DNA of 32,000 nucleotides, taken from positions 48,513-80,512 of the forward strand of contig DYFL01000005.1 of NCBI GenBank assembly GCA_020725195.1, in the 5' to 3' direction. The notes under the pieces were generated by a model. The model was not told where the DNA came from. It made no database searches and worked only from the letters and a program-made list of their open reading frames with translations. The stretch is from Hydrogenophilus sp. (GTDB lineage: Bacteria; Pseudomonadota; Gammaproteobacteria; Burkholderiales; Thiobacillaceae). Below are positions 9,354-32,000 of this stretch, one piece after another. The position numbers were made by a program, and so were the translations under genes. Numbering within the stretch: position 1 is the first letter of the stretch; every line of letters begins with the position of its first letter.

Positions 9354-9374
9354 GGTCTCCGGCGCCTTCCGGCA

Positions 9375-16036: not shown

Positions 16037-16112
<76 letters not shown>

Positions 16113-16144
16113 ATAAAACATCCGGCGAATTCCGCCGAATTCCG

Positions 16145-16185: not shown

Positions 16186-16275
16186 CGGCAGTTTCCGAGC
16201 AAAGCCGCTTGAAGCCGGGGTCAAATGGGGGCAATATTGGGGGCAACCCCCAAAGCATCTACGGGAGATGCCCCC

Positions 16276-17478
16276 ATGCCCCTGACAGACACCGCTATCC
16301 GCAAGGCGCAGCCTGGCGAAAAGCCTATCCGGCTCTTCGATGAACGTGGTCTCTACCTGGAGGTCGCTCCAGGCGGAGGCAAGTGGTGGCGGCTCAAGTA
16401 CCGATTCGGCGGTAAAGAGAAGCGGCTGTCCCTCGGGGTCTATCCAGACGTGACCCTGGCCAGAGCCCGCGAGAGGCGGGACGATGCCCGCAAATTGCTG
16501 GCCGACGGCGTTGACCCGGGCGAACATCGCAAAGCCGCCAAGCGTGCCAAGGAAGACGCGGCCGCCAACAGTTTCGAGGCGGTTGCTCGGGAGTGGTTTG
16601 CCAAGCAGTCCATCCACTGGGCCCGGGGGCATGCCGAAAAGATCATCCGCCGACTGGAGCGCGATCTGTTCCCCTGGCTCGGCTCCCGGCCGGTCGCCGA
16701 CATCACGGCGCCGGATATACTGACCGTACTCCGCCGCATCGAAGGCCGCGGCGCCATCGAGACGGCCCACCGTGCCCTGCAAAATGCTGGACAGGTCTTC
16801 CGCTATGCCGTGGCCACAGGGCGCGCTATGCGGGACCCTACGGGCGATTTGCGCGGGTCCCTCACTCCATGGAAACCGAAGCACTACCCGGCCATTACCG
16901 ACCCCAAAGAGATCAGCCCCCTGCTTCTGGCCATCGATGGCTTCACCGGCACCTTCCCGGTGAAGTGCGCCCTGCAGCTCCTGCCCATGCTCCTGGTCCG
17001 ACCCGGGGAGCTGCGGCAGATGGAGTGGGCCGAGGTAGACTTCAAAGAGGCCTCCTGGTCCATCCCTGCCGAGAAGATGAAGACCCGAGTGCCCCACCTG
17101 GTGCCTTTGCCTCACAAGGTGGTGGAGATCCTGCGCGAGCTGCATCCACTCACCGGTCGAAGCCGCTGGGTCTTTCCGGGCGTGCGCGACCATGCCAAAC
17201 CTATGAGCGAGAACACCCTGAATGCCGGCCTGCGCCGCCTTGGTTACGACAAGGACACCCTCACCAGCCACGGCTTCCGGGCCACGGCCCGCACGCTCCT
17301 GGATGAGGTGCTCGGGTTCCGCCCGGATTGGATCGAGCACCAGCTCGCTCACGCCGTTCGCGATCCGAACGGCCGCGCATACAACCGCACCGCACACCTG
17401 AAGCAGCGGCGGGAGATGCTGCAGGCTTGGGCGGACTATCTGGACGGGCTCAAGGCCGGTGCCGGTAGGGGGAGTTGA
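16276..17478 (+). CDS. int: Tyrosine recombinase, P4-type phage integrase (N-terminal DUF4102-like arm-binding domain)
   Basis: MPLTDTAIRKAQPGEKPIRLFDERGLYLEVAPGGGKWWRLKYRFGGKEKRLSLGVYPDVTLARARERRD is the textbook N-terminus of P4/CP4-57 family integrases. Catalytic region: ...LLVRPGELRQMEW...HGFRATARTLL...HQLAH...AYNR..(Y). ATG 16276 (M18 of the track ORF) is preceded by GGGAGA. Confidence 0.92.
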   Translation: MPLTDTAIRKAQPGEKPIRLFDERGLYLEVAPGGGKWWRLKYRFGGKEKRLSLGVYPDVTLARARERRDDARKLLADGVDPGEHRKAAKRAKEDAAANSFEAVAREWFAKQSIHWARGHAEKIIRRLERDLFPWLGSRPVADITAPDILTVLRRIEGRGAIETAHRALQNAGQVFRYAVATGRAMRDPTGDLRGSLTPWKPKHYPAITDPKEISPLLLAIDGFTGTFPVKCALQLLPMLLVRPGELRQMEWAEVDFKEASWSIPAEKMKTRVPHLVPLPHKVVEILRELHPLTGRSRWVFPGVRDHAKPMSENTLNAGLRRLGYDKDTLTSHGFRATARTLLDEVLGFRPDWIEHQLAHAVRDPNGRAYNRTAHLKQRREMLQAWADYLDGLKAGAGRGS

Positions 17479-17479
17479 T

Positions 17480-17947: not shown

Positions 17948-18017
17948 CGTTGTTCTTTCTGTTTCTCCGCACATAATGGGGTAGCCATGTACCGCACGAA
18001 CCCAGGAGGTTCCAATC

Positions 18018-19218: not shown

Positions 19219-19415
19219 GTACCGCTGACATCATCCTGAAGGCCATAGATGACCTCCACGACGCTGCTGCTCTTGCCGAGGCATTGAAAGCGATGCATGA
19301 GACGGGCAGCTACCCGTGGCGCGTCGTAGATGTGCTTGCCGCCCGCCTCCAAGAAATCATCAGTCGCATGGATCAGTTCGATACCCACGGCCAGGGTTGC
19401 CGCGATGCCGGCTGA
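19215..19415 (+). CDS. Hypothetical protein (66 aa)
   Basis: ATGA overlap with the previous gene and GGAGG RBS. MSTADIILKAIDDLHDAAALAEALKAMHE... Confidence 0.45.
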   Translation: MSTADIILKAIDDLHDAAALAEALKAMHETGSYPWRVVDVLAARLQEIISRMDQFDTHGQGCRDAG

Positions 19416-19788: not shown

Positions 19789-20770
19789 GTTGGTTGCAGA
19801 GACCGAAGAGCAGCGCGCAGCGCGACGGCGCGCAACACCGAGCGCAACAGGGCTCGTCGCAATCAACCTCGAAGATTTCCTGACAACACCCATTCCACCC
19901 AGGAAAGCCCTCATAGACCCTGTGCTCCACGAGCAGAGCCTGGGGATGATCTACGCTAAGCGTGGTGTTGGGAAGACGCAGTTCGTCATGGGTTTCGGCT
20001 ATGCGGTGGCGGCTGGCGCACAGTTCATGGGCTGGTCAGCACCTGAGCCGCGCAAGGTGCTGCACATCGATGGGGAGATGCCGGCCGCCAGCCTGCAACA
20101 ACGCTTGGCGGAGTTGGTGAAAGCCAACGATAAGGAGCCCCCCAAGGGCTATCTCCGAATCATCACCCCAGACCTGCAGCCGCGCGGCATGCCTGATCTG
20201 GCCCTGTTGGATGGGCAGATGGCCATCGATGAACAGGTGGAGGATGACACCGCCCTGATCATCGTCGACAACCTGAGCTCCCTGGTCCGTTGGGGTGGCA
20301 GCGAGAACGACGCGGAGAGCTGGCTCTCGGTTTCTGAATGGGCTCTGAGGCATCGCGCCAAGGGCAGGGCCATCCTGTTCGTCCACCACGCCGGCAAGAG
20401 CGGACAGCAGCGTGGCACCAGCAAGCGCGAGGATCTTCTCGACCTGGTGCTGGCTCTGCGACACCCAACCGATTACGACCCCAGCCAAGGCGCCCGCTTT
20501 GAAGTCCACTTCGAGAAGGCGCGAGGACTGTTTGGCGCTGACGTTGACCCGTTCGAGGCCGCACTCGGTACCGACGACCAAGGCCGGCAGGCCTGGGCAA
20601 CCAGCCCCTTGGAAAACTCGACCTATGAGCGCTCCATCGAGCTGCATGGGCTTGGTCTTTCTGTGACCGACATCGCCAGGGAACTGGAGGTGCACAAGTC
20701 CACCATCAGCCGCGCGTTACAGCGCGCACAGCATGAGGGGCGGATTACCCCCAGGGGCAAGCAGAAATGA
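19778..20770 (+). CDS. RecA-fold AAA ATPase (RepA-like / AAA_25-type) with C-terminal helix-turn-helix
   Basis: Walker A YAKRGVGKTQF and Walker B ALIIVDNLSSL. FVHHAGKSGQQRGTSKREDLLD is typical of RepA-like replicative/loader ATPases of islands and plasmids. C-terminal LSVTDIARELEVHKSTISRALQRAQ is a resolvase-type HTH. Confidence 0.8.
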   Translation: MVLELVAETEEQRAARRRATPSATGLVAINLEDFLTTPIPPRKALIDPVLHEQSLGMIYAKRGVGKTQFVMGFGYAVAAGAQFMGWSAPEPRKVLHIDGEMPAASLQQRLAELVKANDKEPPKGYLRIITPDLQPRGMPDLALLDGQMAIDEQVEDDTALIIVDNLSSLVRWGGSENDAESWLSVSEWALRHRAKGRAILFVHHAGKSGQQRGTSKREDLLDLVLALRHPTDYDPSQGARFEVHFEKARGLFGADVDPFEAALGTDDQGRQAWATSPLENSTYERSIELHGLGLSVTDIARELEVHKSTISRALQRAQHEGRITPRGKQK

Positions 20771-20788
20771 ACTATGTCCCCTGCCCCC

Positions 20789-20964
20789 TGTTGCGCTGTT
20801 GCCCCTCTAAAGAGGGGGCAACACGCAACAACAAGGGGCGGCCCCGCAACAAACCATGCAACAAAGGCGCAACGATGAGCCTGAAAGCCTTAGCCCATGC
20901 GGTTTTATCACGCAACAACTCAGACAGGGCAACGCCTGAAACACCCGCAACGCGAGGAAGCAAC
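20789..20964. repeat. Iteron-like cluster: 9 direct GCAAC(A/G) + 2 inverted GTTGC copies, including a ~20-bp-arm imperfect palindrome
   Basis: GCAAC at 20818, 20825, 20846, 20858, 20869, 20912, 20929, 20947 and 20960. GTTGC at 20790 and 20798. TGTTGCGCTGTTGCCCCTCT (20789-20808) pairs with AGAGGGGGCAACACGCAACA (20811-20830), with one bulge per arm. The cluster lies immediately downstream of the ATPase-HTH gene. Confidence 0.7.
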
Positions 20965-21264
20965 AGCCGCGATGATCTGGGCGGTCTGCGCTCAGACTTC
21001 ATCACGGTTCGGGCTTGGTTCGTTTGCTGTGGTGAATGGACCGAGGCCGAGGCCCTGGAGGTCTGGGGGGCTATCGATGGGGCTGACCATGGCGAGCGTG
21101 CTTTCTGGGCTGAGTGGATGGCTGGTATGGCGCAGATGGTCCGTGATCATGCCGCCTGGCTGAAGGAGATCGATGCGAGCGCCTTGGAGGCTGCGCGCAA
21201 GAGGCATGGGGTGCAGACAACGGCACTCGATTTGAAGAAGGAGCATGGAAATGATCAAGCTTGA
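20875..21264 (+). CDS. Hypothetical protein (129 aa); 5' part overlaps the iteron cluster
   Basis: MSLKALAHAVLSRNNSDRATPETPATRGSN...WFVCCGEWTEAEALEVWGAI... The start is uncertain: the track ORF begins at 20767, but its first 36 codons are the translated palindrome and iterons. Confidence 0.4.
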   Translation: MSLKALAHAVLSRNNSDRATPETPATRGSNSRDDLGGLRSDFITVRAWFVCCGEWTEAEALEVWGAIDGADHGERAFWAEWMAGMAQMVRDHAAWLKEIDASALEAARKRHGVQTTALDLKKEHGNDQA

Positions 21265-21961
21265 AATCAAGGGCGTGGACAACGTGACACGGGTACTGAA
21301 CCGCTTAGGCAAGCAGTCGAACAGCGTGTCCGCGCGTGCGCTGAACAACCTGGGCTTCGGTATCAGGAAGTCACTCCAGAAGGAGATGGAGAGCGCATTC
21401 GCCAACCCGACGCCATACACGAAGCGCAGCATCTACGTGCACAAGGCCACGGAGACCAATCCGACGATGACGGTCGATTTCAAGGATGAGGCGTTCAAGG
21501 CGATCCCGCCTGATCGGTACATGCGCCCCCAGGTCTATGGCGGCAGCCGTGTGCTCAAGCGCTCCGAGCGGCGGCTGGGCACTTATGCCTACCCTGGCCG
21601 GGGTGCTGAGCTTGATGCCTACGGGAATATGAGCCGTGGCGAGATCGTCAAGATACTGACCCAGCTGGGCAGGCTGGGCGTCAACACGATGAGCAAGCGG
21701 GCCAGGAAGGCCGGGATCGCGCAGAAGATTATCCATCGTCACCTCGGCACACAGTATTTCGTCGCCCGCAGCAAGTCGAACGGCAAGCCGCTCGGGGTAT
21801 GGAAGCTGCTCGGCACCGGCCGCGTAACCCCCGTGCTGGCCTTCGGCAGGAAGCCGAACTACAAGCCTCGATTCGATTTCCACGGTGTTGCTCAGCGAGT
21901 GATCGAAGAGCGCATGGAGCGGGAGCTGGTCAGGGCGCTGAAGTACGAGCTGGGCAAATAG
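21251..21961 (+). CDS. Hypothetical protein (236 aa); N-terminus reminiscent of HK97-gp10-type head-tail proteins (weak)
   Basis: ATG 21251 lies 7 nt after AAGGAG (21238-21243). The pattern MIKLEIKGVDNVTRVLNRLGKQSNSVSARALNNLGFGIRKSLQKEMESAF resembles the 'M.I.I.G.del...L..L......al...' openings of phage neck and virion-morphogenesis proteins. Not verified. Confidence 0.5.
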   Translation: MIKLEIKGVDNVTRVLNRLGKQSNSVSARALNNLGFGIRKSLQKEMESAFANPTPYTKRSIYVHKATETNPTMTVDFKDEAFKAIPPDRYMRPQVYGGSRVLKRSERRLGTYAYPGRGAELDAYGNMSRGEIVKILTQLGRLGVNTMSKRARKAGIAQKIIHRHLGTQYFVARSKSNGKPLGVWKLLGTGRVTPVLAFGRKPNYKPRFDFHGVAQRVIEERMERELVRALKYELGK

Positions 21962-22035
21962 TGGGTCCTTCCTGGGAAAAACGCCTTACGGGCAATTCGA
22001 ACCCAGACTTTTCGCTAGTGGGTGGGATTTTCTCG

Positions 22036-22079
22036 GGGTTGACATACCAGTTGACTCTCCTCCTGGGTTGACATTGACA
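22036..22079 (+). promoter_or_regulatory. Repeated TTGAC(A) hexamers / GGGTTGACAT direct repeat (candidate internal promoter-operator)
   Basis: GGGTTGACAT occurs at 22036-22045 and again at 22065-22074 (29-bp offset). There is also TTGAC at 22051 and TTGACA at 22074-22079. The region lies in the 106-nt gap before the next ORF. Confidence 0.35.
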
Positions 22080-22574
22080 GATACGACGCCACTCCAGCAC
22101 TGCCTGCAACTGCGCTCGGTCCTCTCCAAGCCGGTGGCCGGCTTCCCCGAGCCGCTCCGGCTCTGGCTGCTGGCCGGCTTTGTCGCGGCGATGGATGAGG
22201 GGGTGTCGCTGGAGACCGGCCTGGGCCTCAAGGGCGCCGGCATCCGCAAGCTGAAGACGCTGCGCCGGATGGCCTACCGCGACACCCTGATAGCAGAGGC
22301 GGCCGCCCTGGTAGACGGCCGGGACGCCGCCGCCCTGGCCGCCGAGATCAGCCGATTCGAGACGCGCAAGTGGCCCGCCTGGCGCCAGTTGGCTGTCGCC
22401 CCGTCCCATGCCACGCCGATCGAACGCATCCTCTTCGATGTCTTCAGGAGCGGCCTCCTGGTGCCCAGCAGTGCGCGGCAGATCGATCGCATCCTGACAT
22501 CAACCCCCCTGATTTCATGTCAAGAAAACTGCGCGACCATCGAGTCACCTGCACTGAAGGAGCCCAAGAGATGA
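22068..22574 (+). CDS. Hypothetical protein (168 aa; TTG start uncertain)
   Basis: The track ORF has a TTG start and no convincing RBS. ...RKLKTLRRMAYRDTLIAEAAALVDGRDAAALAAEISRFETRKWPAWRQL... No family recognised. Confidence 0.4.
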   Translation: MTLTDTTPLQHCLQLRSVLSKPVAGFPEPLRLWLLAGFVAAMDEGVSLETGLGLKGAGIRKLKTLRRMAYRDTLIAEAAALVDGRDAAALAAEISRFETRKWPAWRQLAVAPSHATPIERILFDVFRSGLLVPSSARQIDRILTSTPLISCQENCATIESPALKEPKR

Positions 22575-22957
22575 GTTTCGACAAAGCCACCGCCACCCGT
22601 GAGGCCATGGCCGAGCTTGAGCGCAATCACCGCGCCAAGTTCATCGGCCTGGCCTGCCTGGCCGCCATCGAGGGCGGCCACATTGACCCGCAGGTCGCCG
22701 CTGGCATCGAGCGCGACGCGCGGCAGCTCATGCAGTCCGCTGCCGCCGATCAAGTCCGCTGGAACCGCGGTGTCGTGCTCATGGCCGAGCATGGCCTGGA
22801 CGCCGAGACCGTCGCCGGCATCCTCAAATCCGACCTGACCGACGAAGCCGCCTGGGCGCGGATTTCCTCAGTCGGTCGTCGCACCTACGACCTGGCCGGC
22901 GAGGCCCAGGAACTGAGGGCGCAGATCCTCGCCTTCGGGAGGCGCGGCCATGAGTGA
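22571..22957 (+). CDS. Hypothetical protein (128 aa), paralogue 1 of a three-member tandem small-protein family
   Basis: ATGA overlap with the previous ORF; AAGGAG upstream. It contains ...LMAEHGLDAETVAGILKSDL..., related to the motif in the two following genes. Confidence 0.5.
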   Translation: MSFDKATATREAMAELERNHRAKFIGLACLAAIEGGHIDPQVAAGIERDARQLMQSAAADQVRWNRGVVLMAEHGLDAETVAGILKSDLTDEAAWARISSVGRRTYDLAGEAQELRAQILAFGRRGHE

Positions 22958-23225
22958 GTACGCCAAGCCCGCACAGCTTGCCGGCCCGCTCGCCCTGGCA
23001 GATGCCGACAAGATCCGCACTGCCGTGCGCATGCGCTACCAGGCTGTCTTGAGCCTGTCGGAGGCCTCCGGCCGCATGGAGGCGGCCCTGGAGCTGGCTG
23101 AAACCGATCTCGATCTGCAAACCGTGGCCGGGCTGCTGAAAAACGCCCCCGAGGCCCTGGCCCAGCCGAGCCGGATCGAGGCCTTCGTGATGGAAAAGCG
23201 CGAGGAGGCAAAAGCCCATGCCTGA
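22950..23225 (+). CDS. Hypothetical protein (91 aa), paralogue 2
   Basis: GGGAGG RBS; overlaps the previous stop. ...RMRYQAVLSLSEASGRMEAALELAETDLDLQTVAGLLKNAPEA... Confidence 0.5.
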   Translation: MSEYAKPAQLAGPLALADADKIRTAVRMRYQAVLSLSEASGRMEAALELAETDLDLQTVAGLLKNAPEALAQPSRIEAFVMEKREEAKAHA

Positions 23226-23544
23226 ACACGATCCCGCCCTGCTGGAGGTTGTGGCCGGCGAACAGGCCCGTATCCGCGCCATCCTGAACGCGCCCGAAGC
23301 GAGACACGCCGGCAACTATGCGGTTCAGCTCGCGCTGGGTACCGATATGCCTGCTGCCAAGGCCATCGCCCTGCTCAAGGCCTTCGCCCCGACCCCGCAC
23401 AACTTCCTGGCCGAGGCCATGGGCCATTTGCCCAATCCCGGCATCGCGCCAGACAGCAATATGGAAAGCGCGGAAGGCGTCATCCTGGCCGCCGAGATCG
23501 CGGCGGGTTTCAACCGACTCACCAGACGAAAGGACACGAAATGA
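23218..23544 (+). CDS. Hypothetical protein (108 aa), paralogue 3
   Basis: GAGGAGG RBS. ...EQARIRAILNAPEARHAGNYAVQLALGTDMPAAKAIALLKAFAPTP... aligns by eye with the 91-aa neighbour (R-I/Y-R/Q-A-I/V-L ... LA..TD ... LLK..AP). Confidence 0.5.
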   Translation: MPEHDPALLEVVAGEQARIRAILNAPEARHAGNYAVQLALGTDMPAAKAIALLKAFAPTPHNFLAEAMGHLPNPGIAPDSNMESAEGVILAAEIAAGFNRLTRRKDTK

Positions 23545-23624
23545 GCACCACTCAAAGCAAAACCAAGACCGTTCGAGAACTGGCGCAGGAACTAGTAGGG
23601 AGGGGGGAGAAACCGGACAGGTGA
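23541..23624 (+). pseudogene. 5' fragment (27 codons) of an island gene, apparently truncated by insertion of the Mu-like element
   Basis: ATG 23541 forms an ATGA overlap with the previous stop and has AAAGGA 6 nt upstream, so it looks like a genuine coupled gene start. It reads MSTTQSKTKTVRELAQELVGRGEKPDR, then a TGA (23622-23624) supplied by the first bases of the Mu-end-like sequence. Confidence 0.45.
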
Positions 23625-23775
23625 ACGGCGAGAAAATTGGCCCGAAAAGCCCGTCGTTACTGGAAAGTTGCCCGAAACACTGAATTCCTGATTTCTGGAC
23701 GGCTGCGGGGATAAAGTGCGGGAAATCTTGGTGGAAACTGCGGGAAATAGCGTAGGCCGGTACGGAAATTACCCC
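23622..23775 (+). repeat. Mu-like transposable-phage terminal region: TGAA... terminus plus ~8 (C/G)GAAA-core repeats (candidate MuA-type transposase binding sites, R-end-like)
   Basis: TGAACGGCGAGAAAATTGGCCCGAAAAGCCCG...TTGCCCGAAACAC (23622-23680), then CTGCGGGGATAAAG, GTGCGGGAAATC, GTGGAAAC, CTGCGGGAAATAG and GTACGGAAATTAC (23703-23772). The Mu R end as I recall it begins TGAAGCGGCGCACGAAAAACGCGAAAG. The shared features are the TGAA-CGGCG-(A)GAAAA opening and the repeated CGAAA cores. Confidence 0.55.
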
Positions 23776-23797
23776 AGTTTGAAGGCCGTTTAATTGG

Positions 23798-24400
23798 TCA
23801 CCGAACCCGATTTAATACAGCCGTCAGATGGTCTTCAATAACGTCGGCCACCAGGCGCTGGTCAGAGGAAGGAAAACCGACCAGCTGGCGGGCCGGGATG
23901 CCGGGATGGGTCACCCGCTTCCTGAATAGCCCACCGAAGGCCAGCGCCTTGGCCTTCTTCGGCGTGATTGTGTAGGCGGCTCCCTTGGGACCGTAGGTGC
24001 CGGTGCCGAAGTGATGCCACACGGCCTTCTGATCGCTGAACCCGAGTTTCAACTCGGTCCCCTGTACCTGGTAATTGAAGCTCCCCAGCATGTCGCCGTG
24101 GTCGTAGAGGATTCGGCGCTTCTTCTCCTGCACTTTCTTGGCCGTGGCCAGGCTCATCTGGCCATTCTTGCGGAATGAATCGTCCTGGGACTTCCAAACC
24201 GCCGAGCCGATGGTCATCGGCGACGCTTCCTTCCATTTTGTACCGTCTGGGGCCAGGCCCTGGTCATGGCGCTCCTGATTCACCCGCAGCAGCGATTCGC
24301 CCAGGCTGCCCAGCATCTGCTGGGGCGTGGCGATTTCGAGGCGGACGGCTTCCATGGCCCTGGCCAGGTGGTCGGCTTGAAATTCGATGGTGAATTGCAT
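23798..24400 (-). CDS. Phage virion morphogenesis protein (Mu gpG-like)
   Basis: MQFTIEFQADHLARAMEAV...LGESLLRVNQERHDQGLAPDGTKWKE...AVWHHFGTG...HPGIPARQLVGFPSSDQRLV follows the Mu G / virion-morphogenesis family pattern (..F....aPdG..W..l... hqfG... iPaR.flG.s..d). Confidence 0.8.
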   Translation of the reverse strand: MQFTIEFQADHLARAMEAVRLEIATPQQMLGSLGESLLRVNQERHDQGLAPDGTKWKEASPMTIGSAVWKSQDDSFRKNGQMSLATAKKVQEKKRRILYDHGDMLGSFNYQVQGTELKLGFSDQKAVWHHFGTGTYGPKGAAYTITPKKAKALAFGGLFRKRVTHPGIPARQLVGFPSSDQRLVADVIEDHLTAVLNRVR

Positions 24401-24465
24401 ATGCTGTGTCCGTGGTTAGGTCAGACTGCGCTTCGGCGCTACTGCACAGTATCCGAGCCACAACT

Positions 24466-24496
24466 AACGCGGCCCCTGAAAAGGCCGCGTTTTTTA
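24466..24496 (+). terminator. Canonical intrinsic-terminator-shaped hairpin oriented on the + strand (antisense to the late operon)
   Basis: AACGCGGCC (24466-24474), CCTGAAAA loop, GGCCGCGTT (24483-24491), then TTTTTATTT on the + strand. Read in operon (minus) sense, the stem is followed only by UAGUUGUGG. Confidence 0.5.
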
Positions 24497-25774
24497 TTTG
24501 CTGAATACCAGCCTGCCCGCCCGCTGTTTATCAAAGTACGCCTCGCGGGCGGCCTCGGTTTTCTGGGTTCCCATAAAGGCGGTGGAGCCTGTCCAGCCGG
24601 TTTTTCCCCACTCGAAGACCGCCACGCCGAATTCGTCCGTCCCTTCCACCTCGAAGGCTCGCAGGTAGCGGCGCTTTAGACGCCACCGGCCCTTGTCGCC
24701 GTGGTCTTTCACCCAGACCCACCAGATTTCGTCCGGCTCAATTACTGTCATGGCCAGTAGGTTGATGTACTCTAGGCGGGCGGCCTTTCCGGGCTTCGAC
24801 AGCCACTTGAACTCCCCCGCGCCGTCCTCGAAAAGTGCCTTGGTGATGGCCAGCGTGCTGCCTGCCGCATCGGTGAATGCCGCGCCTTCGTCCATGGTGG
24901 CCCCGAAGACATCCAGGAAGTCCGCTACGGCCACTTCGGGGGCCGTTTTGGCTGGCAGCAGGGCACTTTTCGGAACCACGGTCGGCTTAGGCATCGGCGG
25001 CGGGGTAAAGCCCGTTGGCCAGGGCGTCCCGCGCTCTTTCAGCACCGCGTCGTAGCCTTGCAGGGGCGGCACCGTCTGCGGCTCCAGCCATGCCTTGCCA
25101 GGGTTGTAGGCGAAGCCTGGGTCAATGCCCTTCGGGGTGCGCACAGTGCGCGGGGCGCTGCCGTTCTTGCCCACCACGCGCTCTTCCCATTCGATGGGCG
25201 GCGCTTCGTCGGGGCCGCTCTTGCCGTTCTTCTCCCATTCGCGGCTGGCCTCCAGGCGGGAGAGCGAATCGACCTTGCACTTGCAGCCCCAGCCGTTCTG
25301 CGGCATGTGAGTGTTCCACCACGGGTCATCGGCGGGCAGGATCAGGCCGTTCCATGCCTTGTGCTCAAGGCGCGGGTGCTCAAAGCTGGTGTGCCGGTAG
25401 CGCCAGTAGGGCCGCAGGTGCTTGACGGCCGTCATCTGCTGGTACCGGCCAGCGTTGTACGCCTGGGTGACATTGGTGTCGTAGATGACCTTGCTGCGCC
25501 AGCCGGGGGTGCCGTTGTAGGCCCAGCCGTGCTTGGCCACGATCTCATCGAACTGCTTGCGGAAAGCCGGATAGCCGGTGCCCGATTCCTTGGCCTGGCG
25601 GATGGCGTTGTAGAAGTCTTCCACCAGGGCATCATGGGCCGCCCCGGCCACCACAAAGCCGTGGCTGTGCTGCTCCTGCCAGATGTCCGTCCAGCCCGAA
25701 GAAGGCAGGCGGATTTTCTGCTTGAAGAAGTCGATGGCTTCGGAGAACTGAAGCTGGTCTGGAGTCGGTGGCAT
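24494..25774 (-). CDS. Phage head morphogenesis protein, Mu F / SPP1 gp7 family, with extra C-terminal domain
   Basis: ...LRPYWRYRHTSFEHPRLEHKAWNGLILPADDPWWNTHMPQNGWGCKCKV is the MuF-domain core (H..l.G......p.W....PP.h.nC.C). About 170 further residues (FLDVFGATMDEG...IWWVWVKDHGDKGRWRLKRRYLRAFE..., ending ...RAGRLVFSK) form a separate C-terminal domain. Confidence 0.85.
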   Translation of the reverse strand: MPPTPDQLQFSEAIDFFKQKIRLPSSGWTDIWQEQHSHGFVVAGAAHDALVEDFYNAIRQAKESGTGYPAFRKQFDEIVAKHGWAYNGTPGWRSKVIYDTNVTQAYNAGRYQQMTAVKHLRPYWRYRHTSFEHPRLEHKAWNGLILPADDPWWNTHMPQNGWGCKCKVDSLSRLEASREWEKNGKSGPDEAPPIEWEERVVGKNGSAPRTVRTPKGIDPGFAYNPGKAWLEPQTVPPLQGYDAVLKERGTPWPTGFTPPPMPKPTVVPKSALLPAKTAPEVAVADFLDVFGATMDEGAAFTDAAGSTLAITKALFEDGAGEFKWLSKPGKAARLEYINLLAMTVIEPDEIWWVWVKDHGDKGRWRLKRRYLRAFEVEGTDEFGVAVFEWGKTGWTGSTAFMGTQKTEAAREAYFDKQRAGRLVFSK

Positions 25775-25777
25775 CGC

Positions 25778-26071
25778 CTATATTTCCGAGGTCAAGGTTC
25801 CGCACTCTCCCGAGTAGCGCAGAAACTTCTCCACCTTCGCCTTTTTTGCATCAACAGCGGACCTAGATAGCCCGCCTTTCCTCCGCAGGGAAATAATCAT
25901 TTCCGCCACCCCGGCCAGGTCGTTCATTTCCTGCCACAGCCGTTCTTCGTTTGTCAGTTCCTGGCCTGGCTGTACCTCATCAAGCCCGAAACGGAGCGCC
26001 TTGCTTGCCCGCTGCGCGACTTCTGCGCACTCTTCTGCAAGGCACAAGAGCAGATGCTGTTCACGATTCAT
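25778..26071 (-). CDS. MazG-like all-alpha nucleoside-triphosphate pyrophosphohydrolase-like protein (97 aa), moron
   Basis: MNREQHLLLCLAEECAEVAQRASKALRFGLDE...TNEERLWQEMNDLAGVAEMI. The ExxE...ExxD arrangement (EECAE; EMND) on two helices is as in small MazG/YpjD-type NTP-PPases. ATG 26071 is preferred over TTG 26089. The DNA is visibly AT-richer than the flanking head genes. Confidence 0.55.
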   Translation of the reverse strand: MNREQHLLLCLAEECAEVAQRASKALRFGLDEVQPGQELTNEERLWQEMNDLAGVAEMIISLRRKGGLSRSAVDAKKAKVEKFLRYSGECGTLTSEI

Positions 26072-26366
26072 TTTTGCCCCCGGTTGCAAGTAGCGCGTGG
26101 ATCGCGTTGATGGTTACCGCCTTGTCGGAATCCGGGGCCGGTAGCAGGCGGATTGCAGCCTCCATCTGCCGCAGGGCGTCATCGTCGTCAGAACCGACCA
26201 TCCCTACCAATGCAGCCCGAAGCATTGCCACGTTCTTCTGCATGGTTTCCAGATGCAAGGCCGTCGCAGCCATGAAGCGGCTGAACTCTGGATGCAGCTG
26301 GTCTTTCTCCTGGGCCTTAGCTTCTGCAATGCACCAGGCGATGTTCATATCTTCGATTTGCAGCAT
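26061..26366 (-). CDS. Hypothetical protein (101 aa), moron between portal and MuF genes
   Basis: ATG 26366 lies 5 nt after the portal stop, with GGGGAG/AAGGA upstream. MLQIEDMNIAWCIAEAKAQEKDQLHPEFSRFMAATALHLETMQKN... No family recognised. Confidence 0.5.
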   Translation of the reverse strand: MLQIEDMNIAWCIAEAKAQEKDQLHPEFSRFMAATALHLETMQKNVAMLRAALVGMVGSDDDDALRQMEAAIRLLPAPDSDKAVTINAIHALLATGGKNES

Positions 26367-26371
26367 GGTCC

Positions 26372-27913
26372 TTACTCCCCATTCCCGATGTCAGACCGCC
26401 CGGCCAAGTTCGCCGCCGCCATGCCCCGCGCCATGGCTTCCGCCCACTTCGGGTTGTTCGCCTTCAAGGCTTCGATCCCGGCCAGGGCTTCGTCGAAGTC
26501 TCCCGCCTCGGCGACGACGGCGGCAATCTGCTGAATGAGGGCCTGCTCATGCGGTGCGCACAGGGCGGCCAGCTGGGCGGCATAGGGGCCGGTGATGTCC
26601 TGCTCTCCGGCCTTGGCCAGCGCCGCTAGGCGCACCAGGGCAGCGTCGGCGGGCGACGTGGTCGGCTTGCCGGACGTCACCAGCAGCTTGGCCCCCTTTG
26701 CGGCGCGGGGAATCTGCATGGTCTGGTGCGCCCACTCCACGTCGATCTCCATGCCCACGTCGGCGGCCTTGACCAGGACATCCACCATCTTGGCCTGATC
26801 GACCGTTTCTTCGGTCTGGTAGCCGAAGGTCGGCAGCCGATCCGCCGGGAACATGCCGTTGATGAGCGCCACCGGGCGCACTACCTGACCGTTCATGGTC
26901 GGTTCGATCTGGCGGACATCGTGCAGCATGATTTCGCGCCGGACCTTGTCATGGATCGCGCCCAGGGCGTTGGTGCTGGTCTTGCCGTCGGCCTGGCTGG
27001 TCAGCGTCCCGCCCAGGATCGCCATGGACTGCTTGCGCTCCCAGTAGCCGACCGCGTTCAGGAAGTCATCGACCGTGCCGGTCTTCGTTGCCTGGATGAA
27101 GTCGATGGACATGGTGCTGGGGACCACGCCCGCGCCATCGTTGCCGATGTTGCGCACCGCTTTCAGCAGTTCGTCGCGCTGTTTGGGGGCGATGCCCGCC
27201 GGATACTTGCCCAGACGCAACGGCAGGCCGTAGACCTCCAGGAAGCGCTGCATGTCGCGGACGTTGTAAGCCTTGTAGGCATACGTCCAGGCCAGCACAC
27301 GGAACAGCGCGGCCTGTTCGATGTAGCCGGACTTCGCCCGGTGCTCATGGACCACCCAGCCCCATTCACGCAGGGCCTCCGGCAGCCCCATCTTGAGGAA
27401 CTGGATGGCCCCGGTGTCACGATCCACCTGGAACATGCGCTGCGGCACCCAGTGGAGCGCCTGCGGCAGCCAGGTGCTGCCCGTCTTCCACTCGATCTCC
27501 AGGGCGGCGAAGCCCTTGCCGATGGCGTCGGTGAGGTCGTACTGGGCGTCCTCGAAGCGCGGGATGTTGCGCAGCATGTCCGCCAGTTCCTCGGTGCGGT
27601 CGATTTCGGCCTGGCTGGCATCCTTGGGCGGGTGCAGCTGCCAGCCGAGGCCGGTCACCGCCCGGCGGCGCTTCGCCAGTTCGGCGAAGATGTGCGGGTC
27701 TTGCTCTTCGACCAGTTCAAACAGGGTCGCCTGGTCGGTGATGAAGCCCTGGTCGGCAGAGGCAAACGCGGCGGCGAGCCGCGACGGGTCCAGGGTGTTC
27801 ACCGAGGCGTAGTTGAGGCTGTTGCCCTGGGTGGAACGGGCACCCGCCTGCAACTTGTCCAGCCCGGAGCGGGCCACCTTGGCCAGTGCGGCCTTGATCT
27901 CTTTAATCATCAT
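26372..27913 (-). CDS. Phage portal protein (Mu gp29-like, DUF935 family)
   Basis: From M49 of the track ORF: MMIKEIKAALAKV...ASADQGFITDQATLFELVEEQDPHIFAELAKRRRAVTGLGWQL.P... is typical of the DUF935 N-terminal region. The gene is ~510 aa and lies directly after the terminase gene. Its start overlaps the terminase stop by 11 nt. Confidence 0.85.
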   Translation of the reverse strand: MMIKEIKAALAKVARSGLDKLQAGARSTQGNSLNYASVNTLDPSRLAAAFASADQGFITDQATLFELVEEQDPHIFAELAKRRRAVTGLGWQLHPPKDASQAEIDRTEELADMLRNIPRFEDAQYDLTDAIGKGFAALEIEWKTGSTWLPQALHWVPQRMFQVDRDTGAIQFLKMGLPEALREWGWVVHEHRAKSGYIEQAALFRVLAWTYAYKAYNVRDMQRFLEVYGLPLRLGKYPAGIAPKQRDELLKAVRNIGNDGAGVVPSTMSIDFIQATKTGTVDDFLNAVGYWERKQSMAILGGTLTSQADGKTSTNALGAIHDKVRREIMLHDVRQIEPTMNGQVVRPVALINGMFPADRLPTFGYQTEETVDQAKMVDVLVKAADVGMEIDVEWAHQTMQIPRAAKGAKLLVTSGKPTTSPADAALVRLAALAKAGEQDITGPYAAQLAALCAPHEQALIQQIAAVVAEAGDFDEALAGIEALKANNPKWAEAMARGMAAANLAGRSDIGNGE

Positions 27914-29600
27914 CGTCCCAATCGTCAGAATGGCCGCTGGCGCGGCTGGTGCTGCGGCGGTCCCGGCGTGATGCCGCCGCCGACGTGTATTGCCATTCGC
28001 CCGCGAACTGGGTGGCGAGCTTCCAGAGCTTTTCCAGGGCGTCCGGGCCGTCGTCATGGTCGGCTTCCGGCCAGAACTTCAACTGCTCGTTCAGCACCCC
28101 ATGGGAGCGGTGGGTGCGAATCTTCCCGTTGGCCACATGGGGTTGCAGCGAGATGATCCGCAAGTCCTTTTCCACGTTCTCCGGCATCGGAATGCCGGGG
28201 AAGGCGATGCCCAGCAGGGCGGCACGCTTGAGCAGTTCGGTGTACATGAATTCTTGGAACTGCACGGTCTCCACGCCCCAGGCCAGGCACTGGTATTCAG
28301 CCTGTAGGTCGATGGCGCGGCTGATGATGAGGTCGGGAACCCGGCGGCAGATATCCGCCTCCACCACGTCCAGCACCATCGTGTTGCGGTTCAGACCTCC
28401 CACCAGGATGGCCGACGGGTCGCGCTTCTTGTTCTGCTTGCCCAGCGACGGGTCGATGGACCCGAAGAAGAGCCAGTCGTTACGCCGATCCACCCAGAAT
28501 TGCAGGGTCTTGAATGGGGCCGTGTCATCGTTGCCAGCCTCGTTCTGCTGCTCCTGGTTAAAGGCATCGTGGTCGGTCGCCCGCATGCACATCAGGCGGT
28601 ACAGCGGGCGCACATCCGGCCAGGAAACCACGGCCCCGGCGTCCATGGCCTCTTTGTTTGACTGGTAGAAGGCCAGCGCCTCGGCTTCGGCGGCTTCCTT
28701 GGCCTCTTCGTCATCGGCCCCGGCGGTGTAGATGCCTTCCCACTTGTCCCACAGGTCCATGCGGTCGGGCCATTGCATAATCGACTTGAAGACCTTGCGA
28801 CGCCAGCCAGGCTTGCGAGAAACGCGGTTGATCGCGGCGTCGTAGTGCAGGCTGGTGCCTGGCCAGAACACATCCATACCACCGGCAGGACCGGCCAAGC
28901 CGAGGACGGCTTTCAGCACGAAGTCCTGCACCTTGTCGCGCTGGCCCTTGTCCCGCACGTTGTCGTCGTTTTCCAGGTCATCCAGGAAGATCAGGTCGGG
29001 CCGGTGCGGGCCGTGCTTCATACCCCGGATTTTCTTGCCCGTGCCGCCGATCCGCACCTTGCGATTGTTGGCCGTGACAATCGTCGTCGCCTGCCACACC
29101 CGACCGCGCCCGCAAGCCTCCGGGAAGTCCATCGCCAGGCGCGGGTTGGTGTCCAGTTCCGCCTTGATGCTCTCCAGCATTTCGGCGGCCTGTTCCTCGG
29201 TGTTCATGATGATGCCGATCATGTGCTTGCGGCCCGTCACGATGCACCACAAGCTGCCCAGCTGGGTCTCGTAGGTCGACTTGGCCTCGCCCCGTGGGGC
29301 TTGATGCACTTCGCGGCCATCCGTGTGGCCGTCGATGACCTCCGGCAGGCGCTTGAAGATGAACTGCTGGAACAGCGAGAAAAAGGCGGTCGGGACGTAG
29401 TGCGGGAAGTAGGTGCGGCAGAAGAACTCGTAGTCATTCCAGGCCCGTTCCCGCCGCGCCTTGCTGGCCGCCGGGTCGGTGTCGAAAGCCTCGCACTCCA
29501 GTTCGATGGTGTTGCGGATTTCCTCGCCCAGCTTGGCCAGTTCTTCCTCGAACTCCCGCCAGTTGCGGACTTCCTTGATCGCCCGGTCGTTACCCACCAT
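27903..29600 (-). CDS. Phage terminase large subunit (Mu gp28-like)
   Basis: Walker-A-like HQAPRGEAKST, Walker B PDLIFLDDLEND, and a C-terminal RNaseH-like nuclease region (...GSIDPSLG...ILVGG...). ATG 29600 (M12 of the track ORF) overlaps the gp27-like stop by 11 nt. The alternative start is TTG 29633. Confidence 0.85.
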   Translation of the reverse strand: MVGNDRAIKEVRNWREFEEELAKLGEEIRNTIELECEAFDTDPAASKARRERAWNDYEFFCRTYFPHYVPTAFFSLFQQFIFKRLPEVIDGHTDGREVHQAPRGEAKSTYETQLGSLWCIVTGRKHMIGIIMNTEEQAAEMLESIKAELDTNPRLAMDFPEACGRGRVWQATTIVTANNRKVRIGGTGKKIRGMKHGPHRPDLIFLDDLENDDNVRDKGQRDKVQDFVLKAVLGLAGPAGGMDVFWPGTSLHYDAAINRVSRKPGWRRKVFKSIMQWPDRMDLWDKWEGIYTAGADDEEAKEAAEAEALAFYQSNKEAMDAGAVVSWPDVRPLYRLMCMRATDHDAFNQEQQNEAGNDDTAPFKTLQFWVDRRNDWLFFGSIDPSLGKQNKKRDPSAILVGGLNRNTMVLDVVEADICRRVPDLIISRAIDLQAEYQCLAWGVETVQFQEFMYTELLKRAALLGIAFPGIPMPENVEKDLRIISLQPHVANGKIRTHRSHGVLNEQLKFWPEADHDDGPDALEKLWKLATQFAGEWQYTSAAASRRDRRSTSRASGHSDDWDDDD

Positions 29601-30087
29601 AGCGCTTCCCCAGGGTGGCCCCGACCTCTTCAAAGTGCGGTTGTAGCGCCTTCAAAGCTGCGGGATCGTGCAGGCGCAGGTGGTCGGCGATGGTCTTGAG
29701 CGTGTCCAACGCTACAGAGAGGCCGGAGAACTGCGGATTGAGCCGTGAGAATGATTTGCTGAACTTGGCGTAGGCATCGGCCAACTGCGCCAGCAACGTC
29801 GCCTTGTCGGCGGCGGGAATCTTGGCTTCCTCCAGTTCGCGGGTGGTGGTGATGACCTGGCGGGCAAAATCTTCCACCAGCTGCTTGTTCAGGTCATCCA
29901 TGCCCTGTTCGCTGATGCGGTAGGCGGCACGGGCCGTATCCCAGTCGTCGCCCCTGGACTGCGCCTTGGCCTTCCAGTCCCGCGCCGTGTCATAGCTGAC
30001 CCCGCAAGTGACGGCAGCGCCGTTCAAGGGCATGCCCTCGATGTACAGCTGCCGCACCTTGTCGCGGGTTTCCTGAGAATGGGCCAT
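29590..30087 (-). CDS. Mu gp27-like protein (DUF1804), probable DNA-recognition / small terminase subunit
   Basis: MAHSQETRDKVRQLYIEGMPLNGAAVTCGVSYDTARDWKAKAQSRGDDWDTARAAYRIS. The N-terminal HTH and the GDDWD segment match what I recall of FluMu gp27-type proteins. Position is immediately upstream of the large terminase. Confidence 0.7.
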   Translation of the reverse strand: MAHSQETRDKVRQLYIEGMPLNGAAVTCGVSYDTARDWKAKAQSRGDDWDTARAAYRISEQGMDDLNKQLVEDFARQVITTTRELEEAKIPAADKATLLAQLADAYAKFSKSFSRLNPQFSGLSVALDTLKTIADHLRLHDPAALKALQPHFEEVGATLGKRYGG

Positions 30088-30090
30088 CAG

Positions 30091-30459
30091 TCACATCCGC
30101 TTGATGAGTTCGACCGCAGCAGCTGCCAGCGCACCGCCGACACCGCCGCCGAGGGCTGACAGCTTGGCCGTCTTCTCGATCAGGCGCTTGTCTTCGGCTT
30201 CCAGGTTGCTGACGCGGGTGCCCAGGCTGTCGATACGCTTGCCGACGCTGGTTTCCAGGTTGTCGATGCGCTGGCCGAGGCTGTCCTCGATACGGTCCAT
30301 GCGTTCGGACTGTGCGGATTCCATGCGGCGGATATCGGCCTTGATGTCTTCGATCCGGGCCGTCAGGCCCTGGTGCATGGCCTGCACCGCGCCGGTCAGC
30401 TGACCGATGCTATGCATGATTTGAGAGTTGTCGCGGCGGTCGCCTTCGGTTTGTTCCAT
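30091..30459 (-). CDS. Phage coiled-coil protein with C-terminal hydrophobic anchor (Mu gp25/gp26 position)
   Basis: It contains three consecutive 11-residue repeats, RMDRIEDSLGQ / RIDNLETSVGK / RIDSLGTRVSN. It ends in the Gly/Ala-rich hydrophobic tail LSALGGGVGGALAAAAVELI. Confidence 0.6.
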   Translation of the reverse strand: MEQTEGDRRDNSQIMHSIGQLTGAVQAMHQGLTARIEDIKADIRRMESAQSERMDRIEDSLGQRIDNLETSVGKRIDSLGTRVSNLEAEDKRLIEKTAKLSALGGGVGGALAAAAVELIKRM

Positions 30460-31019
30460 TACTGCTCCCCTTGTTGTTTGCGATCTGCGGTAACGACCGC
30501 CTGGCAGGCAGTCAGTTGATGGACTACTTCGTCGGCTTCGCTGGCGAGTCCGACAAGAAATTCAGAAGCCTGGACAGAAAGTTCGGCTCGCGTTTCACCA
30601 TCACGTCCGACGGTGCCGGGGCCAGGCGCGGCGGTTCCACTTCCACCGGCTCCATCGGGGCAGGCAACGGGGATGCGCAGGCGCAGAGCGCCAGAGCGCA
30701 GATCAGCAACAGCGCGGTCCTTTGCAGCTTTTTCATGCTTCAAATCCTCTTGGTATTTGGCCGATGCGGCGGCCATGTCATGGGCGTGCTCACGCTCCCT
30801 GGCGCGGGCCTGGTCTTCCAGTTCCTTGATACGGGTGTTGGCCTTGGTCAGGGCGGTGTTCTCGCGGCCCAGCCATGCCGTCCGCTCGGCCTTTTCTCCC
30901 TGCCCGAACTGCTGTTGGCCGTAGGCGTAGATGGCGGCCACTACGGCGGCCACTACGGCGGCCACCAGAAGCACGGCGCCCAGCAGCTTGGCCCGCGGCG
31001 GAATGAAGGGCAGCTTCAT
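30459..31019 (-). CDS. i-spanin (Rz-like)
   Basis: From M72 of the track ORF: MKLPFIPPRAKLLGAVLLVAAVVAAVVAAIYAY (N-terminal TM), then a coiled coil ...LRSGALRLRIPVAC...AELSVQASEFLVGLASEADEVVHQLTACQAVV. This is the typical Rz architecture. ATGA overlap with the endolysin stop. Confidence 0.8.
   Translation of the reverse strand: MKLPFIPPRAKLLGAVLLVAAVVAAVVAAIYAYGQQQFGQGEKAERTAWLGRENTALTKANTRIKELEDQARAREREHAHDMAAASAKYQEDLKHEKAAKDRAVADLRSGALRLRIPVACPDGAGGSGTAAPGPGTVGRDGETRAELSVQASEFLVGLASEADEVVHQLTACQAVVTADRKQQGEQ
30524..30736 (-). CDS. o-spanin (Rz1-like lipoprotein), fully embedded in the Rz gene in another frame
   Basis: MKKLQRTALLLICALALCACASPLPAPMEPVEVEPPRLAPAP. It has a lipoprotein signal with Cys and a short Pro-rich mature part. 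It is 70 aa and entirely inside 30459-31019. Confidence 0.75.
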   Translation of the reverse strand: MKKLQRTALLLICALALCACASPLPAPMEPVEVEPPRLAPAPSDVMVKREPNFLSRLLNFLSDSPAKPTK

Positions 31020-31645
31020 GCCGACACCCCACGGCCCCAGGCGAGATAGCGGGGCTGCAACAGGGTCAGGATGCGGCGGGGATAGCCCAGGTTTTCCGGG
31101 CAGAAGCTGGGGTGGCGGCGGGCCTTGCCGCAGGCGTTGTCCACCGCCTGCCGATCCAGCGCCGGGCGTACTGTGGCGGCCTCCTGCTGCCAGTGGCCCA
31201 GCCCGCCGTTGTAGGCCCGCAGGGCGGCCCATAGGCGGTCGAACTCGGAAGGGCCGCGCACCCGGTCAAACAGCCAGCGGTCGTAGCCCACCAGCGCCCG
31301 CATGGCCCATGTCGGATTGGTCGGCTGGCACTCGGCAGCGCCCAGCCCGTTGGCCTCGCACCACCACCGCGCCGTGGCGGGCATGAACTGCGCCATGCCG
31401 ACGGCACCGACGCGGGAAACGGCCTCGGGGTTCCATCCGCTTTCCTGGTGGATTTGGGCAGCGAAGGCCGCGACCGGGGCATCCAGGCCCCAGGCGGCAT
31501 GGGCGGCGCGGGTAAGGTCGGCCCGGTGCTTGAGAGCGGCACGGGGAACGTCCTGGGCGTTCGCCAGCAGTGGCAGCATGACCAGCGATAGCAGCGCGGC
31601 GCAGACCACCAGTGCCCAGCGGGCAGTGGAGCGATGGATGCGCAT
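31016..31645 (-). CDS. Endolysin: lytic transglycosylase (SLT domain) with N-terminal secretion signal
   Basis: MRIHRSTARWALVVCAALLSLVMLPLLANA (signal/SAR-like), then IHQESGWNPEAVSRVGAVGMAQFMP (catalytic E-S ... GxMQ SLT motif) and ...AYNGG. Confidence 0.85.
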   Translation of the reverse strand: MRIHRSTARWALVVCAALLSLVMLPLLANAQDVPRAALKHRADLTRAAHAAWGLDAPVAAFAAQIHQESGWNPEAVSRVGAVGMAQFMPATARWWCEANGLGAAECQPTNPTWAMRALVGYDRWLFDRVRGPSEFDRLWAALRAYNGGLGHWQQEAATVRPALDRQAVDNACGKARRHPSFCPENLGYPRRILTLLQPRYLAWGRGVSA

Positions 31646-31646
31646 G

Positions 31647-32000
31647 TCAGGCCCCCAGGCCGATGGCCATCATGGCGCAGCCGACGATGATGGCCCGGCG
31701 CAGCATGGCCATGGCGAACACGAAGCCATCGCCATCGACTACCTCCCAGGGGATCAGCTTGCAGTCGCCGTCCAGGTCGATGTCGCAGGCTTCCTCATCG
31801 GGCGTGATCTTGACGATGAACGAATCGGGGCGGGCGTAGGGGAAGAGGGAGCGGTCAAGCCAGTACCCGGCCACCCCGGCCATGGTGACCAGGGAGAGCT
31901 TGTAGAGGCTGACGGGAAGCTGGTGTGGATAGAGCAGGCCGATGACGGCCAGCAGCAGGACGGTGGCAATCAGCCACCCGAAAAGGCGGGGTTGTTTCAT
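31647..32000 (-). CDS. Putative holin / phage membrane protein (3 predicted TM segments)
   Basis: 117 aa. Hydrophobic segments are LFGWLIATVLLLAVIGLLY, LSLVTMAGVAGYWL and AIIVGCAMMAIGLGA. It lies immediately upstream of the endolysin. The ATG sits on the last three bases of the window, so the true start could be further upstream. Confidence 0.45.
   Translation of the reverse strand: MKQPRLFGWLIATVLLLAVIGLLYPHQLPVSLYKLSLVTMAGVAGYWLDRSLFPYARPDSFIVKITPDEEACDIDLDGDCKLIPWEVVDGDGFVFAMAMLRRAIIVGCAMMAIGLGA

Follow-up and report, generated by a model that had tools for sequence, protein, structure and literature searches.

From position 23594 onwards the window, i.e., the whole stretch of 32,000 nucleotides analysed here, very probably holds the left arm of a KS10-like transposable prophage of about 36-37 kb, which is inserted in a 183-aa gene of an island of about 11 kb at a tRNA-Ala gene. 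The assignment to the transposable phages is based on the occurrence of the element in many contexts, on the recovery of both ends, on 5-bp target duplications, on transposase and MuB-like genes in relatives and on the precedent of the Burkholderia phage KS10. A Mu-like transposable phage terminus inside a gene of the tRNA-Ala island, with one mobile element nested in another, had been proposed in the first-pass annotation; the many insertion contexts and the restored 183-aa open reading frame (ORF) bear this proposal out. The phage came later, into an island gene that had been intact until then. The coordinates of the features are compiled in Table 1.

Table 1. Features of the island, the insertion site and the phage arm (positions refer to the window)
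Feature	Position	Strand	Basis or remark
tRNA-Ala(CGC)	16037..16112	+	attachment side of the island; ARAGORN
P4-type tyrosine integrase of the island	16225..17478	+	Pfam Arm-DNA-bind_3, Phage_int_M, Phage_integrase
AlpA of the island	18018-18242	+	Pfam Phage_AlpA
AAA_25 protein of the island	19778-20770	+	Pfam AAA_25
5' fragment of the split island gene, 17 2/3 codons, MSTTQSKTKTVRELAQEL	23541..23593	+	in-frame join to L106 4777-5275
Left copy of the 5-bp target-site duplication, GAACT	23589..23593	.	window flank compared with L106 flank
Left arm of KS10-like transposable (Mu-like) prophage	23594..32000	-	continues beyond the window; gene content, KS10 synteny
Terminal 25 nt, AGTAGGGAGGGGGGAGAAACCGGAC	23594..23618	+	identical or nearly so in about 19 contexts and in distant relatives
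Phage-derived tail VGRGEKPDR and stop of the fused 27-codon ORF	23594..23624	+	TGA 23622-23624
Proposed terminal transposase site L1, AGAAACCGGAC	23608-23618	+	CYGGAY 20-25 nt from the tip, both ends
Weak hairpin and T-run, GGCTTTTCGGGCC AATTTTCT	23639..23651	-	consensus scan; low confidence
Proposed second transposase site L2, TGATTTCTGGACGGC	23689..23703	+	conserved in 16/16 aligned ends
Three phased SGGAAAT repeats	23717..23769 (at 23720, 23742, 23763)	+	GGGAAAT blocks family-conserved
Virion morphogenesis protein, Mu G-like, Phage_tail_S	23798..24400	-	Pfam 6.8e-16; last gene before the end
MuF-like minor head protein, C-terminal PBECR2 nuclease-like domain	24494..25774	-	Pfam; 38% identical to KS10 gp01
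Mu-type portal protein	26372..28057	-	Pfam Portal_Mu 1e-88; gene-caller start gives 512 aa (26372-27910)
Terminase large subunit	27903..29633	-	49% identical to KS10 gp04
DUF1804 small terminase-like protein	29590..30087	-	Pfam 8e-45; 37% identical to KS10 gp05
Lysis cassette: Rz-like, SLT endolysin (31016-31645), holin (31647-32000)	30459..32000	-	Pfam; collinear with KS10 gp09, gp10
Putative tail-end sites R1 GATTTCTGGAT, R2 GAAAAGCGGAT, R3 GAAATCCGGTG			sequence conservation

Gene order of the left phage arm

Mu-type late genes on the minus strand that point toward the phage end had been recognized in the first reading, and Pfam confirmed them: the Mu-type head and packaging module is present with Portal_Mu, MuF, G and DUF1804. 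The supposed Mu-style R end beyond tail genes had to be replaced by a left end of the KS10 type, at which an inverted module of lysis, packaging, portal, F and G genes abuts the terminus. In two relatives with 96% DNA identity that are present on longer contigs (L011, L012), the block from the lysis genes to G runs to the same end. Upstream of the holin gene these contigs carry a regulatory switch, followed by a divergent operon in the opposite direction that encodes a Ner-like HTH protein, a 467-aa H-NS-domain protein, a 557-aa transposase, a 315-aa AAA+ protein, DUF3164, GemA, Mor and a Mu-like protease. The 557-aa protein matched Mu-transpos_C with 27.7 bits (cut-off 21.7), together with weak matches to rve and DDE_2, and the 315-aa protein matched AAA_22 and TniB as a MuB-like ATPase. 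The expected MuA/MuB-like genes were thus found as a DDE transposase and a MuB-like ATPase and are known from these 96%-identical relatives; the window stops at 32000 before them. The Ralstonia solanacearum record L035, another relative, reaches further and includes the genes for capsid, sheath, tape measure, baseplate and fibres. The layouts of L011 and L035 agree with the KS10 annotation in the split arrangement of the KS10 subgroup, in which lysis, terminase, portal and MuF genes form an inverted block at the left and the head module is interrupted by the early operon.

G as the last gene is the normal KS10-type layout and not a truncation, because the module of lysis, packaging, portal, MuF and G genes is inverted at the left end, as in KS10. 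A truncated prophage remnant, in which a deletion had removed the scaffold, capsid and tail genes after G and the junction were the deletion scar, is highly unlikely. Such a deletion would account for the presence of island DNA within 204 bp of G, which in Mu is followed by I, T (scaffold, capsid) and the tail genes. However, the full-length relatives and KS10 itself carry the module inverted at the left, with protease, capsid and tail genes on the other arm, the same end abuts many unrelated flanks, and a matching tail-side end with a GAACT duplication exists.

The left phage end and the split island gene

The plus-strand ORF at the end of the island was present as described in the first-pass annotation, with its coupled start, its 27 codons and its TGA at 23622-23624. 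The ATG at 23541 overlaps the TGA of an upstream 108-aa ORF (ATGA), AAAGGA is located 7 nt upstream, and the frame reads MSTTQSKTKTVRELAQELVGRGEKPDR up to the stop codon, whose TGA opens TGAACGGCGAGAAAATTGGCCCGAAAAGCC. Only a part of this ORF belongs to the island. An identical 200-aa G protein was encoded on 20 public contigs in different contexts, and the DNA 3' of the G stop codon was conserved on all 20 over 204 bp, followed by a single divergence point. On those contigs, the G-side end reads ...CGCCGTTCACCTGTCCGGTTTCTCCCCCCTCCCTACT, followed directly by the flank. Counting further IMG/VR contigs, about 19 distinct flanks were obtained, among them the island of the window, a locus with beta-eliminating lyase, Crp and HU genes (L004), a patatin/PLA1 locus (L011) and many others. 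BLAST alignments of the same phage in other contexts to the window stopped exactly at 23594. Because the alignments across the insertion contexts diverge at this base, the element starts at 23594, where it opens on the plus strand with AGTAGGGAGGGGGGAGAAACCGGACAGGTGAACGG..., and the junction is 23593/23594. The proposed junction at 23621/23622 was misplaced, as the common sequence extends 28 bp further out. Of the 27 codons of this ORF, the island supplies no more than 17 2/3 at the 5' side; the remaining 9 codons and the stop codon come from the phage end.

These observations leave very little room for a Mu-type TG... terminus at 23622, where TGAACGGCG would form the phage tip, the junction would be 23621/23622 and the target duplication ACAGG. 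The sequence TGAACGGCG does resemble the beginning of the Mu R end as quoted in the first reading, and cores of the CGAAA type come after it. But the 28 bp at 23594-23621 accompany the phage in all its other contexts, the right-hand flank opens with GAACT and not with ACAGG, and KS10-type phages do not have TG...CA ends (PMC2628397). The actual tip is AGTA..., and TGAACGGCG lies 28 bp inside the element. It is kept only in close relatives and replaced in others that retain the terminal 25 nt; as the family as a whole does not conserve it, the similarity to the Mu R end is coincidental. An equally slim chance is given to the 28 bp (AGTAGGG...ACAGG) being a repeated host or island target or an att core, instead of phage DNA. 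The 25-nt tip is indeed unusually conserved, even where the neighbouring DNA has diverged. Against a target or att core, an intact ORF and a simple duplication of 5 bp result when the phage is taken out together with the 28 bp, the tip varies with the phage lineage (e.g., AGTAGGGAGGTAGGGGAAACAGGAC in Ralstonia), the flanks are unrelated coding sequences, and the motif occurs only once in the window.

A chimeric assembly of island and phage is the least probable of the explanations, to a degree that makes it nearly negligible. Metagenome assemblies often break or are mis-joined at repeated phage ends, and several contigs end about 20-30 nt past the G-side terminus. Many IMG/VR and metagenome contigs break just beyond both phage ends, which is compatible with variable host DNA at virion ends and not diagnostic. 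Yet assemblies of three independent samples, by separate pipelines, contain one and the same junction (Logan SRR13164376, JGI 3300029893, Logan SRR5011275), and the complementary junction exists. Over 6.5-15 kb, two of these junction contigs were 100% identical to the window and the third 99.9%.

The (C/G)GAAA repeats and the repeat pairs noticed in the first reading are real. Between 23594 and 23797, [CG]GAAA occurs seven times on the plus strand and not once on the minus strand, with 0.29 copies per strand expected from the window average; these seven are part of 46 plus-strand copies in the whole 32 kb. The motif GCCCGAAA is present twice, 30 bp apart (23640, 23670), and (G/C)TGCGGGAAAT twice, 22 bp apart. 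With CGGAAAT at 23763, the latter pair forms a series of three SGGAAAT sites spaced 22 and 21 bp, which are three of the nine matches in the window. The ORF, repeat and late-gene features greatly exceed chance expectation. When 16 ends were aligned, the constant blocks were the terminal 25 nt, TGATTTCYGGAC at about +96 and the GGGAAAT blocks. The core of L2 was given as GATTTCTGGAC (23690-23700), and the site nearly matches the terminal site of the other end, TGATTTCTGGATG. The core pattern GAWWWCYGGA had one match in the window (0.42 expected) and is too short for significance, thus the site assignments rest on the conservation within the family. The hairpin with the T-run overlaps the first of the two GCCCGAAA copies, and its pattern of A-run and G.C pairs is partly conserved in the family alignment. 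An Rfam search at the phage end revealed no RNA family, and the search for a sigma-70-like promoter at this end yielded none, only the weak terminator-like hairpin.

The tail-side end, the target duplication and the island

Comparison of two insertions among the Ralstonia records revealed the position of the tail-side end, which reads ...CCGGAAATCAAAGCCGCTTTACT and is followed by the flank. IMG/VR contigs with the tail-side end were fetched by a profile search with a baseplate protein. On at least 17 contigs the end ...TCCRGAAATCAAAGCCGCTTTACT was conserved and followed by unrelated flanks; together with the about 19 flanks of the left end, insertion is documented at many unrelated sites, with no single att site. 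An inverted copy of the left terminus on the far side had been predicted. The tail-side end was indeed found, but the inversion is imperfect: a search for an inverted copy with up to 6 mismatches in the fetched loci and the Ralstonia records gave none. Both ends finish in ...TACT-3' and carry CYGGAY 20-25 nt from the tip; only AGTA and this CYGGAY at positions 20-25 are shared between them.

The right-hand junction was read on L106, a separate contig from a metagenome with a near-identical copy, since the window ends at 32000. L106 was found by exact search with the tail-side end and originates from the JGI sample 3300029893, the same as L134, whose alignment with the window spans 13.6 kb and contains one indel but not a single mismatch (99.9% identity). 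The left flank in the window ends ...GCGCAGGAACT. On L106 the phage ends with ...AAAGCCGCTTTACT at 4771 and is followed by GAACTGCGCGCCGAGGTTGAC..., a flank that starts with GAACTGCGCG and thus with GAACT. Removal of the phage and one copy of GAACT yielded an in-frame ORF of 552 nt for 183 aa, in which MSTTQSKTKTVRELAQEL is joined directly to RAEVDTLNQRIGEKN...ATVIR and a stop codon. L106 therefore shows what had been predicted: past the other end of the phage, the split ORF goes on in the same frame. For the target duplication, the predicted length of 5 bp proved correct, the pentamer did not: it is GAACT, and ACAGG is phage sequence. Two further 5-bp duplications were present within single contigs of relatives, ATTGA (L110/L044) and CCCGG (L117/L052), so that a 5-bp duplication was observed in three of three cases; further IMG/VR contigs trimmed at gene ends were left out of these pairs.

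The prophage of the window would end about 36 kb from 23594 in ...GCCGCTTTACT / ...CATCCAGAAATCAAAGCCGCTTTACT, after which GAACT and the remainder of the ORF would come, and the empty site is predicted to read ...GCGCAGGAACTGCGCGCC. An exact 26-mer across the predicted uninterrupted site had 0 matches in metagenome_contigs. For the restored 183-aa protein, searches of genome_contigs, metagenome_contigs and a set of 5.8 billion proteins gave no relatives, and neither an uninterrupted island gene nor an empty site was found in any collection searched.

The island itself has the features of an element integrated at a tRNA gene: the integrase is located beside the tRNA 3' end, and a border repeat was seen on L106. 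The GC content is about 71% in the host DNA before 16000 and about 60-66% in the island and the phage. The host is an uncultured betaproteobacterium, whose Lgt protein shares no more than 72% identity with those of Zoogloea, Sulfuricella and Thiobacillus MAGs. A direct repeat of the tRNA-Ala 3' end, sought across the window, was not found there. The far border of the island is only on L106, at about 8165-8400 of that contig and outside the window; it carries CCTCCGCCCACCA, compared with CCTCCGCTCCACCA at the tRNA 3' end. Past this border, the intergenic region and the 5' end of the integrase gene recur in degenerate form (79% identical). The border is an attR, and behind it lies what is left of a second island. 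Positions 21245-21961 of the window encode a minor tail or tail-completion protein (phrog_1924, 8e-60), and on L106 the restored gene is followed by genes for a tail-assembly-chaperone-like protein and a tape measure protein of 657 aa. The island is phage-like and measures about 10.9 kb when the phage is subtracted.

Proposed transposition and comparison with known systems

From the sequence conservation, a model of the insertion can be proposed. A MuA-related DDE transposase, together with the MuB-like AAA+ ATPase, would bind subterminal sites with the core WWW(C/G)YGGAY; putative sites are L1 at 15-25 nt from the tip, L2 at about +96 and R1-R3 at the tail-side end. The transposase would cleave at the AGTA...TACT termini and join them to a target cut with a 5-bp stagger. 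The three phased GGAAAT repeats, which share GAAATC with the proposed transposase site in the opposite orientation, are probably additional candidate sites for the transposase or an accessory protein. GGCCCGAAAAGCC, together with the A-run next to it, may act as a small terminator for the late genes. The insertion would inactivate the island gene and leave the 27-codon fusion ORF that ends in phage-end sequence. In Mu, the subterminal transposase sites are arranged asymmetrically at the two ends, and its spacing of L1, a gap and L2/L3 versus contiguous R1-R3 is resembled by the spacing in the family of the window.

On balance, we lean towards a more general view: in this KS10-like family of Betaproteobacteria, a MuA-related transposase processes ...TACT-3' ends instead of the near-universal ...CA-3' and still creates 5-bp duplications. 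If this is true, the absence of direct repeats in the KS10 description is probably due to a mis-set left end, and the family would be a natural variant for studies of end recognition and cleavage by Mu-type transpososomes. For annotation, the insertion provides an exact prophage boundary (23594), the target duplication GAACT and the identity of the 27-codon ORF as a disrupted gene, and G as the last gene of KS10-type phages should not be taken as a sign of decay. With this comparison, both termini and the 5-bp duplication are for the first time described consistently in the KS10/Ralstonia group, which is common in betaproteobacterial genomes and metagenomes. The element belongs to the known KS10-like group, and only the AGTA...TACT termini with 5-bp duplications are mildly new. 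It clearly illustrates the inactivation of an island gene by a second mobile element, with no unexpected mechanism.

Similarity to Mu is evident in the DDE transposase, the AAA+ B protein, the 5-bp target duplication and the genes for a Mu-type portal, F, G, Mor, GemA and protease. The transposase similarity to Mu is weak, with Mu-transpos_C above the threshold and the core matches below it. Mu ends in TG...CA, whereas AGTA...TACT was present in every member of the family of the window that was examined. The late genes of Mu form one collinear block to the R end, while the genes from lysis to G are inverted at the left end in this family. BcepMu is likewise a Mu-like transposable myovirus of Betaproteobacteria, and BcepMu homologues of several KS10 genes have been cited (PMC2628397). 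BcepMu-type elements have a transposase with an Rve core related to Tn552 and TG...CA termini (PMC2628397); the element of the window has neither this transposase type nor these termini.

The closest deposited sequences are unannotated prophage records of Ralstonia solanacearum ('Ralstonia phage YO...': ON170019, ON170186, ON170356), which are about 78% identical in the DNA of the packaging and portal genes; for the transposase protein the identity is 82%. Their termini are of the same type, AGTAGGGAGGTAGGGGAAACAGGAC at one end and ...CCGGAAATCAAAGCCGCTTTACT at the other, no single record holding both. Unlike the element of the window, they are predicted prophages from a different host genus. 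A Mu-like prophage of Ralstonia solanacearum UW551 was already noted in the KS10 paper (PMC2628397).

The closest characterised phage is Burkholderia phage KS10 (NC_011216), whose transposase (gp16) is 38% identical over 89% of the protein. The layout is the same: gp01 (MuF) to gp10 (holin) lie on the minus strand at the left end, gp16 (transposase) and the following genes on the plus strand, and as in the relatives of the window a divergent early operon with transposase and B-like ATPase leads on to GemA, Mor, protease, capsid and myovirus tail genes. The first 17 kb of KS10 are described as inverted, and insertion occurs at varied (random) sites inside genes (Goudie et al. 2008, PMC2628397). 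The homologues are collinear and 22-63% identical, so that the sequence kinship is only distant. The right end of KS10 also finishes with ...GCGCTACT (...CTACT), as in the family of the window. KS10 has no TG...CA termini and carries four putative 15-nt transposase sites at its ends (PMC2628397); the repeat motif is GGTCAAATTAAACG in KS10, compared with WWWCYGGAY and GGAAAT in the family of the window. Unlike KS10, this family has one more gene between MuF and the end, which is G-like (Phage_tail_S). A search with the KS10 left flank in the phage collection gave nothing useful. For the KS10 flanks "no evidence of direct repeats" was reported (PMC2628397), in contrast to the 5-bp duplications in all three cases of the window's family.

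The tRNA-Ala island and its right border

The element integrated at tRNA-Ala and split by the Mu-like prophage is phage-like and has a size of about 10.9 kb, reconstructed from window 16037-23593 and from 4772-8400 of L106, the companion contig on which the island resumes behind the tail-side prophage end. Besides an integrase, AlpA and an AAA_25 replication-type protein, it carries several tail genes (see table), while neither capsid nor terminase genes were seen in these two segments. Possible readings of the island are a satellite-like element and a decayed prophage. Its right border, at 8165-8400 of L106, repeats the 3' end of the tRNA, the intergenic region and the start of a P4-type integrase (~50 codons) in degenerate form, at 79 % identity and with an internal stop codon. 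This border looks like the remnant of a second, tandem island. Over 13.6 kb, the window and L134, the nearly identical contig of JGI sample 3300029893, differed solely in one indel, which is located in an island ORF.

Features of the island and the prophage
Feature	Location	Size	Remarks
Integrase, AlpA, AAA_25 replication-type protein	within window 16037-23593		island
Indel-bearing ORF	window 20767-21264	165 aa	island
Same ORF in L134	L134 7926-8315	called as 129 aa	island
Minor tail/tail-completion protein	window 21245-21961		island; phrog_1924
Tail assembly chaperone			island
Tape measure protein		657 aa	island
MuF-like protein	window 24494-25774 (- strand)		prophage; C-terminal PBECR2 domain (Barnase/EndoU/ColicinE5/RelE-like nuclease)
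Coiled-coil ORF	window 30091-30459	122 aa	prophage; between Rz and DUF1804 genes
Early-operon protein	L011 6518-7921 (- strand)	467 aa	prophage; between Ner-like gene and transposase
N6/N4 DNA methyltransferase	L106 3866-4645		last gene before tail-side prophage end

Host flank

The host flank (window 1-16000) has a GC content of ~71 %. Among 185,579 species representatives, none had an Lgt more than 72 % identical to that of the host, with MAGs of Zoogloea, Sulfuricella and Thiobacillus as best matches. The host is a betaproteobacterium without a close sequenced representative.

Prophage genes and comparison with Mu and KS10

With its PBECR2 domain, the MuF-like protein combines a MuF part with a toxin-like domain at the C-terminus. 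Within the coiled-coil ORF, an imperfect 36-nt direct repeat is present in three copies (window 30196-30285), probably reflecting a heptad-like repeat at the protein level. In L011, a longer contig with a 96 %-identical phage, the N-terminus of the early-operon protein matches the C-terminal DNA-binding domain of H-NS (2.8e-11). The window's own phage lineage (L017) has other alleles in place of this early region, coding for proteins of 59, 153 and 290+ aa (phrog_18998). The methyltransferase sits where Mu has its DNA-modification gene mom.

The deposited right end of Burkholderia phage KS10, the closest characterised phage, finishes with ...GCGCTACT (37600-37635), like the prophage family of the window. 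The left end (1-30) begins with AGAGGGGGGACG, where the family has AGTAGGGAGGGGGGAG. Flanking direct repeats were published as absent in KS10 (PMC2628397), which may reflect a left end placed a few bases off.
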